64,000 bases of DNA from Thomasclavelia spiroformis (GCF_018369555.1 NZ_JAGZCC010000002.1), one strand, 5' to 3'; shown: positions 55,889 to 56,046, counted from the stretch's first letter. The notes: generated by a model not told the origin, from the letters alone. Program-made: numbers and translations.

Positions 55889-55909
55889 ATGTATATGTTT
55901 TCTTGCTAA
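55889..55909 (+). CDS. Leader peptide MYMFSC (6 codons) upstream of the ABC-F gene
   Basis: RBS GAGGTGGAAGG immediately upstream. Followed by two hairpins, the second with a T-run. Confidence 0.4.
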   Translation: MYMFSC

Positions 55910-55990
55910 AAATTAAATAACAGTGATTAGCTGTTTTTGTGTGCAAGAAAATATATCCTTTTATTTATACATGCTATCTAATATTTTTAG

Positions 55991-56026
55991 GCTACGAGTA
56001 TATATTTTCTTGTAGCTTTTTATTTT
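55991..56026 (+). terminator. Attenuator/terminator hairpin GCTACGAG..CTTGTAGC plus TTTTTATTTT, 20 nt before the ABC-F start
   Basis: 8-bp stem (one G-U pair), 10-nt loop, T-run, directly upstream of RBS AGGAGGAA. Confidence 0.5.
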
Positions 56027-56046
56027 AGTTATAGGAGGAATGTTAG

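Follow-up and report, generated by a model that had tools for sequence, protein, structure and literature searches.

A probable ribosome-dependent transcription attenuator upstream of an Lsa-like ABC-F gene in Thomasclavelia spiroformis

RESULTS

A leader with three predicted, competing pairings precedes the ABC-F gene

We analyzed a 64,000-nucleotide (nt) stretch of DNA from Thomasclavelia spiroformis (GCF_018369555.1, NZ_JAGZCC010000002.1), referred to here as the window, in which a short leader lies between a predicted promoter and the gene for an Lsa-like antibiotic resistance (ARE) ABC-F protein. Thermodynamic models and comparison with related sequences make a ribosome-dependent transcription attenuator, one that controls the ribosome-protection gene that follows, the likely design of this leader. 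It belongs to a known kind, the ribosome-mediated attenuators of ARE-ABCF genes of the vmlR/cplR type. In our models, the switch is three-way: a box within a 6-codon upstream open reading frame (uORF) (positions 55898 to 55906) and the loop plus 3′ arm of a terminator (56000 to 56016) compete for one segment located between them (55943 to 55960). The elements concerned are listed below; SD stands for Shine-Dalgarno sequence and MFE for minimum free energy.

55838 to 55866, + strand: predicted sigma-70 promoter, with -35 TTGTAA (55838 to 55843), a 17-nt spacer, and TG-extended -10 TATATT (55861 to 55866)
55878 to 55888, + strand: SD of the uORF, GAGGTGGAAGG, read from the sequence
55885 to 55906, + strand: segment 1 (SD end, AUG, and box 1), the 5′ strand of the predicted anti-antiterminator helix, from the MFE and centroid structures and the pair table
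55889 to 55909, + strand: uORF, ATG TAT ATG TTT TCT TGC TAA (MYMFSC), from the ORF listing
55898 to 55906, + strand: box 1, the last 9 coding bases of the uORF, UUUUCUUGC
55919 to 55938, + strand: predicted apical hairpin, then a U-run; 55919 to 55924 paired with 55930 to 55935, -5.0 kcal/mol
55943 to 55960, + strand: segment 2, GCAAGAAAAUAUAUCCUU, predicted to pair with segment 1 (off) or with the terminator loop and 3′ arm (on)
55971 to 55989, + strand: spacer complementary to the ABC-F SD/start region, a candidate anti-SD, from full-length folds
55989 to 56026, + strand: predicted intrinsic terminator, with 5′ arm 55989 to 55998, loop 55999 to 56008, and 3′ arm 56009 to 56018
56000 to 56016, + strand: segment 4 (terminator loop plus 3′ arm), AUAUAUUUUCUUGUAGC, the 3′ strand of the predicted antiterminator
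56017 to 56026, + strand: terminator U-tract, UUUUUAUUUU
56033 to 56039, + strand: ABC-F SD, AGGAGGA, with the start codon ATG at 56047 to 56049
56047 to 57522, + strand: Lsa-like ABC-F (ARE) gene, 491 codons long, with an in-frame TAA at 56701 to 56703

An earlier reading of this sequence (the original prediction) had named a strong ribosome-binding site before a 6-codon ORF, a small hairpin at 55919 to 55935, and a terminator-like hairpin with a T-run at 55991 to 56026. The SD and the uORF are as listed, AACAGU (55919 to 55924) pairs with GCUGUU (55930 to 55935), and the terminator was found within a few bases of the place given for it. The distance between the T-run and the ABC-F ribosome-binding site had been put at 10 nt; it is 6 nt, since the U-tract ends at 56026 and the SD begins at 56033. 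The regulatory region had also been described as intact despite a stop in the coding sequence, which agrees with our finding of an intact leader and a gene with a single T-to-A nonsense change.

The promoter was found by a consensus scan, with 9 of 12 matches and a TG preceding the -10 box. Homologous leaders carry TTGTAA, TTGCAA, or TTGAAA followed, at an equal distance, by TGnTATGAT or TATTAT boxes. In the window, the predicted -35 box overlaps the stop codon of an upstream 134-amino-acid (aa) ORF that ends at 55843.

Masking of the uORF start codon removes the terminator in folding models

The leader is structured beyond what chance would give, because the MFE of its 181 nt is -52.1 kcal/mol, compared with -31.8 ± 3.6 kcal/mol for 200 dinucleotide shuffles (z = -5.6; none of the 200 was as good), and because its layout recurs upstream of every homologous ABC-F gene examined. 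The free leader folds into a hairpin between segments 1 and 2 (the 1:2 hairpin; -27.7 kcal/mol) and the terminator (10 pairs, 10-nt loop; -11.2 kcal/mol). In the 1:2 hairpin, the SD/AUG strand and the uORF box are paired with segment 2, and the helix reaches down to 55879 on the segment 1 side and up to 55966 on the segment 2 side. The terminator loop and 3′-arm sequence at 56000 to 56013 (AUAUAUUUUCUUGU) is likewise exactly complementary to segment 2, and segment 4 includes box 4 (UUUUCUUGU), which nearly repeats the uORF box. With the uORF masked, an antiterminator between segments 2 and 4 (2:4; at least 15 pairs, -16.2 kcal/mol) displaces the terminator in the MFE structure. A consensus terminator scan, which permits only loops of 8 nt or less, reported no terminator; it missed this one because the loop has 10 nt.

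To locate the effect of masking, a 32-nt ribosome footprint was slid along the leader and the terminator probability was computed at each position. The probability fell from 0.91 in the free leader to 0.07 to 0.15 only for footprints starting at 55873 to 55882, which correspond to a ribosome with its P site on the AUG at 55889. For all other footprints, including the stop-codon position further 3′, it stayed between 0.4 and 0.93. In published work, ribosomes exposed to lincosamides, pleuromutilins, or streptogramin A stall at initiation or immediately after it (PMC9226507, PMC12421871), and an effect confined to the start codon matches this behavior.

The original prediction had read the leader as a ribosome-mediated attenuator whose alternative terminator and antiterminator structures should emerge on folding. 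The uORF-dependent layout, the loss of the terminator on uORF masking, and the presence of a conserved, mutually exclusive antiterminator all support that account in silico. One part of the structural description did not stand: the small hairpin at 55919 to 55935 is not an alternative structure but lies inside the anti-antiterminator, as its conserved apical hairpin. By analogy with stem-loop 2 (SL-2) of the vmlR leader (PMC9226507), this hairpin may act as an RNA polymerase pause hairpin or as a helix-nucleating element. The strict NusG pause motif TTNTTT is not present after it; there are only five U's and then a G. As a separate candidate, we considered the apical hairpin and its five U's as a first terminator and rejected it, as the hairpin is too weak (-5.0 kcal/mol) and the U-run is unconserved in distant leaders.

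The course of events that we propose is as follows. Transcription would begin near 55873, from the promoter at 55838 to 55866. In the off state, with no drug present, a ribosome would quickly translate the 6-codon uORF and depart, and segment 1 would pair with segment 2 in a long anti-antiterminator hairpin capped by the small conserved hairpin. With segment 2 thus sequestered, the terminator (55989 to 56018) and its U-tract to 56026 would form, and RNA polymerase would halt about 20 nt short of the ABC-F start codon. In the on state, an inhibitor of the peptidyl-transferase center (by analogy a lincosamide, a streptogramin A, or a pleuromutilin) would hold a ribosome on or next to the uORF start codon; its footprint, about 55874 to 55905, would hide segment 1 and leave segment 2 free to pair with the terminator loop bases first and then with the 3′ arm (56000 to 56016). 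The antiterminator would have a kinetic head start, the loop bases being transcribed ahead of the 3′ arm. The terminator would be blocked, and polymerase would read through into the ABC-F gene. Pairing of the spacer at 55971 to 55989 with the ABC-F SD/start region may add a second layer, of translational control. In this scheme, we infer the translation of the uORF, the drug dependence, the drug spectrum, the termination efficiency, and the pausing role of the apical hairpin; that an antibiotic would induce the gene is suggested by analogy with published systems.

The three pairings are conserved and covary in related leaders

Close leaders were collected by exact-protein look-ups and by a scan of metagenome DNA for GGATGTATNNNTTTTCTTGCTAA, giving 17 distinct leaders. 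Every one of 21 metagenome loci with the uORF pattern that is readable far enough downstream opens into an ABC-F gene. The same leader precedes orthologs at 65 to 93% protein identity in differing gene neighborhoods, with upstream contexts that include the PTS-IIB gene and 134-aa ORF, an acetyltransferase gene, a ROK gene, a 116-aa ORF, and an insertion sequence (IS). In all close homologs, the SD of the uORF is GAGGTGGAAGG, GGGGTGGAAGG, or GAGGTGAAAGG. Codon 3 of the uORF, which sits in an internal loop of the off-state fold, is variable among related leaders (AAA, AGA, ATG, AAT, or CTA, for K, R, M, N, or L). The U-tract right after the terminator hairpin is kept in all relatives, and the differences between the window and the T. 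spiroformis leader leave all pairs intact (A-U to G-U, U-G to U-A, or G-U to A-U). Four leaders with identical uORF bases precede ABC-F proteins that are only 50 to 55% identical to P0001, the database protein closest to the product of the window gene; these four have different apical hairpins and terminators and the same plan. Across homologous loci at 50 to 93% protein identity, all three pairings are retained, with compensatory changes.

A covariance model built from 7 close leaders recovered all relatives and, at many distant Lsa loci, placed hits with E values of <0.01 immediately before the ABC-F start. Off-state pairs were counted over the 22 best matches to this model, in an alignment fitted to the model structure; it replaced MAFFT alignments, which misaligned the apical hairpin and the divergent leaders. 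In the off-state structure, 96.7% of cells are paired, compared with 87.4% in shuffles and 43 to 52% when the partner is slid by 1 to 3 columns. Changes on both sides were found for 16 of 33 pairs, and none of 500 shuffles reached the observed values. Most of this covariation resides in the apical hairpin (helix 4; two-sided changes at 5 of 6 pairs, 98.3% of cells paired) and in the terminator stem (helix 5; two-sided changes at 6 of 9 pairs, 98.4% of cells paired). The segment 1 helix has 93 to 98% of its cells paired. In the window itself, the covariance model also gave a weak match on the - strand at 53236 to 53310 (24.7 bits; E = 0.034 in a 489-kb search), which is probably due to chance.

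The 2:4 pairs were assessed by duplex prediction for each sequence, since three leaders (L101, L110, and L112) carry 2-nt indels in both strands that preclude column-wise counts. A 2:4 duplex of 12 to 15 contiguous pairs is found in all 15 close leaders and in two further loci, L062 and L099. The three leaders with indels have compensatory changes between segment 2 and the terminator loop; for example, the main clade has ..AAUAUAU/AUAUAUU.. where L101 has ..AAUAGAC/GUCUAUU... Unless segment 2 and the loop pair, nothing would make the loop bases covary with this segment. The evidence in silico thus covers the existence of three mutually exclusive pairings as well as how stable, how conserved, and how covariant they are.

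A three-box leader is widespread among Lsa-family genes

A profile scan of genome contigs yielded, among the matches listed, 80 Lsa-family loci (L009 to L088) from Clostridia, Bacilli, Negativicutes, and other groups; these are mostly distant, with one close relative (L009). An SD followed by an M-x-x-[FILV]-S-C uORF, sometimes extended by K or R, occurs in 45 of the 80. In these 45, the SD takes the form GGAG/GAGGTG..AAAG, and the ATG, the frame, and an in-frame stop (TAA, TGA, or TAG) are kept, as they are in all close homologs. Among the listed loci, the uORF lies 110 to 440 nt, mostly 190 to 390 nt, upstream of the ABC-F start.

The codons of the uORF are nearly fixed: Ser is encoded by TCT in 43 of 52 and Cys by TGC in 48 of 52, and the fourth codon is nearly always NUU. 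Hence, the conserved item is an octamer, UUUCUUGC. The octamer recurs in the terminator 3′ arm, as in GAGCUGCAAGAAU..ACUUUCUUGCAGCUC, and between the two boxes lies a segment 2 of the GCAAGAAAGUUA type that is able to pair with either. Family-wide comparison of box variants, in a table of 34 rows, revealed that rare variants shift together in the three boxes, giving UGU/ACA/UGU in L055, UCC/GGG/CCC in L060, and AUUCUUGC/GCAAGAAU/AUUCUUGC in L068. These sequence comparisons suggest that the trait under selection is probably not the leader peptide but the bases that encode it, because codons 2 and 3 vary, whereas the F-S-C codons, which pair with segment 2, are fixed down to their nucleotides.

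Most Paenibacillus and Brevibacillus loci in the listed set lack this uORF under the criteria used. Some of them give weak covariance-model hits, and these loci may have a variant leader.

The ABC-F gene is Lsa-like and interrupted by one stop codon

The two halves of the gene, 56047 to 56700 and 56704 to 57519, match positions 1 to 217 and 220 to 490 of the NCBIfam Lsa model (NF000167) with 304.9 and 350.5 bits, and no NCBIfam family scores higher than Lsa. P0001, the closest protein in the database, is a "ribosomal protection-like ABC-F family protein" of T. spiroformis; it is intact, has 491 aa, and is 93% identical. P0001 and a second intact ortholog, P0002, score 674.9 and 674.7 bits, below the 750-bit cutoff of the Lsa model; therefore, the protein is Lsa-like and formally outside the NCBI Lsa family. 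Both orthologs pass the model NF000355, "ribosomal protection-like ABC-F," with 463 to 464 bits against a cutoff of 380.

In the window, TAA replaces Leu219, and the gene lacks an unbroken reading frame of about 490 aa that spans two ABC domains. All homologs carry Leu at this position, encoded by TTA in the orthologs. The stop results from a single T-to-A change (TTA to TAA) relative to both the T. spiroformis-type contig L002 and the metagenome contig L089, CATTTAAAAAAAGAT having become CATTAAAAAAAAGAT. The change falls at a homopolymer junction, turning T3A7 into T2A8, and the remainder of the 1,476-nt gene is without defect. Either the nonsense mutation is very recent, or the stop is an error of sequencing or assembly at this junction. 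If it is real, the switch in the window would drive a gene broken by one stop.

The ABC-F locus is a mosaic. Its 5′ part, made up of the leader and about the first 405 nt of the gene, is ~93% identical to the T. spiroformis type (L002), and over these ~405 nt the gene shows only 67 to 82% identity to L089. From about nt 412 to the gene end, and over 500 nt downstream (57523 to 58022), the sequence is ~99% identical to L089. This pattern of identity indicates a recombination breakpoint inside the ABC-F gene.

The leader resembles, and differs from, described attenuators

ARE-ABCF genes are generally regarded as attenuator controlled (PMC8546547, PMC12421871), and drug induction, toeprints, and mutational tests have been published for the vmlR and cplR leaders (PMC9226507, PMC10201436). 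The window leader has structural features of this class. It lies between a promoter and an ABC-F ORF and contains a conserved short uORF led by an SD; in silico, it has an intrinsic terminator upstream of the main ORF and a mutually exclusive antiterminator that is released by occupancy of the uORF.

The Bacillus subtilis vmlR leader has the uORF MIN and forms SL-1 (anti-antiterminator), SL-2 (pause hairpin), SL-3 (terminator), and SL-4 (an SD-sequestering hairpin) (PMC9226507). Like it, the window leader serves a chromosomal ARE-ABCF gene of the PLSA (pleuromutilin, lincosamide, and streptogramin A) type and embeds a very short uORF with its own SD in the anti-antiterminator hairpin. It also has an intrinsic terminator directly before the main SD, an antiterminator as the alternative fold, an additional small hairpin, and possibly a helix that sequesters the SD; the predicted trigger, a ribosome stopped on the AUG of the uORF, is also the same. 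The two leaders have no detectable sequence similarity, however, and the uORF has 6 codons (MYMFSC) in the window rather than 3. Unlike in vmlR, the small hairpin of the window lies inside the anti-antiterminator loop, not between anti-antiterminator and terminator, and the strict TTNTTT motif is lacking. The antiterminator of the window also differs: as predicted in silico, it involves the terminator loop and 3′ arm (2:4) and repeated UUUCUUGC/GCAAGAAA boxes.

The cplR leader of Clostridioides difficile, with the uORF MRI, combines transcriptional and translational attenuation, and its induction requires stalling on the uORF (PMC10201436). It shares with the window leader a 5′ hairpin that sequesters the uORF, a 3′ terminator followed by poly-U, and an origin in an anaerobic gut member of the Bacillota. 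In cplR, the terminator stem sequesters the main SD, whereas in the window the SD lies 6 nt past the U-tract and only pairing of the spacer with the SD is possible. The ABC-F subfamily (ARE1 CplR versus Lsa-like) and the uORF are different as well.

The lsa(A) and lsa(E) genes belong to the same protein family as the window gene, Lsa being the best NCBIfam match, and Lsa(E) is 52% identical to P0001. On the Enterococcus faecium plasmid pY13 (L117, NZ_KR936172.1), lsa(E), which adjoins lnu(B), is preceded at 325 to 550 by an SD, a MYNFSC uORF, and the same three-box plan, with GCAAGAAAGUUAAG as segment 2 and GAGCCGUAAGAAUUUACUUUCUUGCGGC-UUUU as terminator. The lsa(E) leader is ~200 nt longer than that of the window, and its uORF is 363 nt from the start codon instead of 158 nt. 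The LsaA uORF of Enterococcus faecalis, in contrast, is MAGN according to uORF4u (PMC10201436) and not M-x-x-F-S-C. The msrD leader (MsrDL, MYLIFM) and the erm leaders resemble the window leader in that a drug-stalled ribosome on a short ORF remodels the downstream RNA and switches on a resistance gene (PMC10314930); unlike the window leader, they rely on the nascent peptide sequence and on macrolides in the exit tunnel.

The published uORFs are MIN for VmlR, MK[L/Q] for VmlR2, MR[I/M] for CplR, MAGN for E. faecalis LsaA, MLV and MVGDDDISG for ARE5 proteins, and MYLIFM for MsrD. In the literature searched, which left most subscription-journal papers outside, we found no paper with an MxxFSC uORF or the lsa(E) leader. 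An Rfam search of 55400 to 56500 at E values of ≤10 gave no match save a chance small nucleolar RNA hit at 55610 to 55664, a search of the whole window at the gathering score gave nothing, and a permissive search of four related leaders, including that of lsa(E), matched no family. The leader is not an amino acid biosynthesis attenuator of the trp/his type, as MYMFSC has no tandem regulatory codons and the downstream gene encodes an ABC-F protein.

Neighboring loci

Upstream of the leader, the window contains a repressor gene with helix-turn-helix and peptidase S24 (LexA/CI-like) domains (53729 to 54358, - strand) and, at 54853 to 55843 (+ strand), a gene for a 205-aa protein with a C-terminal PTS-IIB domain and the overlapping 134-aa ORF, which has no family match. 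The same three genes lie in synteny in contigs of the T. spiroformis type. In several T. spiroformis-like metagenome contigs (L001, L003 to L006, and L008; ~820 to 2752 in L001), an IS that encodes a 559-aa DDE_Tnp_1 transposase is located at the exact 5′ edge of the leader. A direct duplication of 77 bp flanks this IS and contains the last part of the 134-aa gene together with the complete promoter of the leader; this could reflect either a genuine duplication of the promoter or a join made in assembly.

Downstream, a reading frame is open on the + strand from about 59408 to 64000 (at least 1,530 aa) and matches a large gene found in related contigs downstream of the ABC-F gene. Three other giant ORFs on the + strand fall within the first half of the window, at 314 to 6250 (1,978 aa), 11296 to 15864 (1,522 aa), and 19748 to 24727 (1,659 aa).

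DISCUSSION

Control of the ABC-F gene might instead be mainly translational, as in erm genes or by a layer such as that which acts in cplR, with the spacer at 55971 to 55989 sequestering the ABC-F SD/start region and little real termination. Translational attenuation alone sufficed for repression of cplR (PMC10201436), and the terminator in the window is weak. In full-length folds, the spacer pairs with the SD/start region, leaving the SD and AUG an unpaired probability of only ~0.18; the duplex of the spacer with its own SD reaches -16.4 kcal/mol in the window, compared with -10.2 kcal/mol for cross-locus duplexes, and in most subclades it is stronger than in cross-locus or shuffled controls. 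The same duplex signal is missing from L089, L092, and L099, however, and uORF masking leaves the SD sequestered in equilibrium folds. Moreover, the U-tract right behind the hairpin is conserved in all relatives, the terminator stem has compensatory changes, and the antiterminator is aimed at the terminator loop and 3′ arm rather than at the SD. We therefore regard a mainly translational switch as unlikely, while noting that a transcriptional and a translational layer are compatible. That the ABC-F gene is a pseudogene in this strain, with a drifting leader whose switch no longer works or has no useful output, is very improbable. An in-frame TAA at 56701 to 56703, where all homologs have Leu, and an ATG at uORF codon 3 that is unique to the window among all leaders retrieved would fit such a relic. 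But there is one defect in 1,476 nt, it may be a sequencing error at the T3A7 junction, and the 3′ 1,065 nt of the gene are ~99% identical to an intact metagenomic copy. In the leader, the substitutions relative to T. spiroformis all preserve pairs, and the codon 3 change falls in an internal loop. The attenuator design would persist even in a relic.

We give the least credence to the idea that the hairpin and U-tract terminate the upstream operon (the PTS-IIB-like and 134-aa ORFs) and accompany a uORF that arose by chance, or that the leader senses a metabolite, a tRNA, or a protein; either seems extremely doubtful. Short ORFs are common in AT-rich DNA, and a consensus scan limited to loops of ≤8 nt found no terminator between the end of the 134-aa ORF at 55843 and the leader. 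Against these readings, the leader stays with the ABC-F gene when the upstream genes differ, it is also found on lsa(E) plasmids, and more than half of the listed distant loci retain the uORF with its SD, ATG, frame, and in-frame stop. There is also no Rfam riboswitch, T-box, or leader match, and the uORF has no tandem regulatory codons.

Several points weigh against a ribosome-dependent transcription attenuator at this locus. The support for it in this organism consists of thermodynamic modeling and comparative sequence analysis. Equilibrium folds of the full-length mRNA favor the terminator and the anti-SD helix even with the uORF masked, so that the on state must be kinetic. The terminator is weak: it includes G-U pairs among its 10 pairs, has a 10-nt loop, and is followed by a U-tract broken by an A. 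Fitting the alignment to the model inflates the percentage of paired cells, and most core pairs are invariant within the closest clade. In the window, the controlled gene is interrupted, and selection on this copy may be relaxed already. Finally, the equilibrium mask test on distant Lsa loci gave a clean terminator flip in only 20 of 47. The flips are few because the terminators at those loci are much stronger; this equilibrium result says little about kinetic folding, and we did not score it as counterevidence.

Beyond the attenuator itself, we tentatively put forward a wider proposal, which we rate at slightly below even odds: the leader may be a member of a deeply conserved, apparently undescribed family of Lsa-type leader RNAs that spans the Bacillota and the mobile lsa(E) gene. 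Its mark would be a box present three times, as UUUCUUGC in both the uORF and the 3′ arm of the terminator and as GCAAGAAA in segment 2, and M-x-x-[FILV]-S-C would be a by-product of RNA pairing, not a drug-sensing arrest peptide. If this is true, the three-way pairing freezes the box sequence, leaving the bases of the uORF far better conserved than the protein under its control. Obana et al. asked why the uORFs of ARE-ABCF genes are conserved even though PLSA drugs stall ribosomes with little context specificity (PMC10201436); for the Lsa family, conservation at the RNA level is a suggested and testable answer. The three-box leader with its MxxFSC uORF precedes more than half of the 80 Lsa-family genes listed as well as the clinically important, mobile lsa(E), and a covariance model of the Lsa leader could flag inducible lsa-type genes in genomes and metagenomes.

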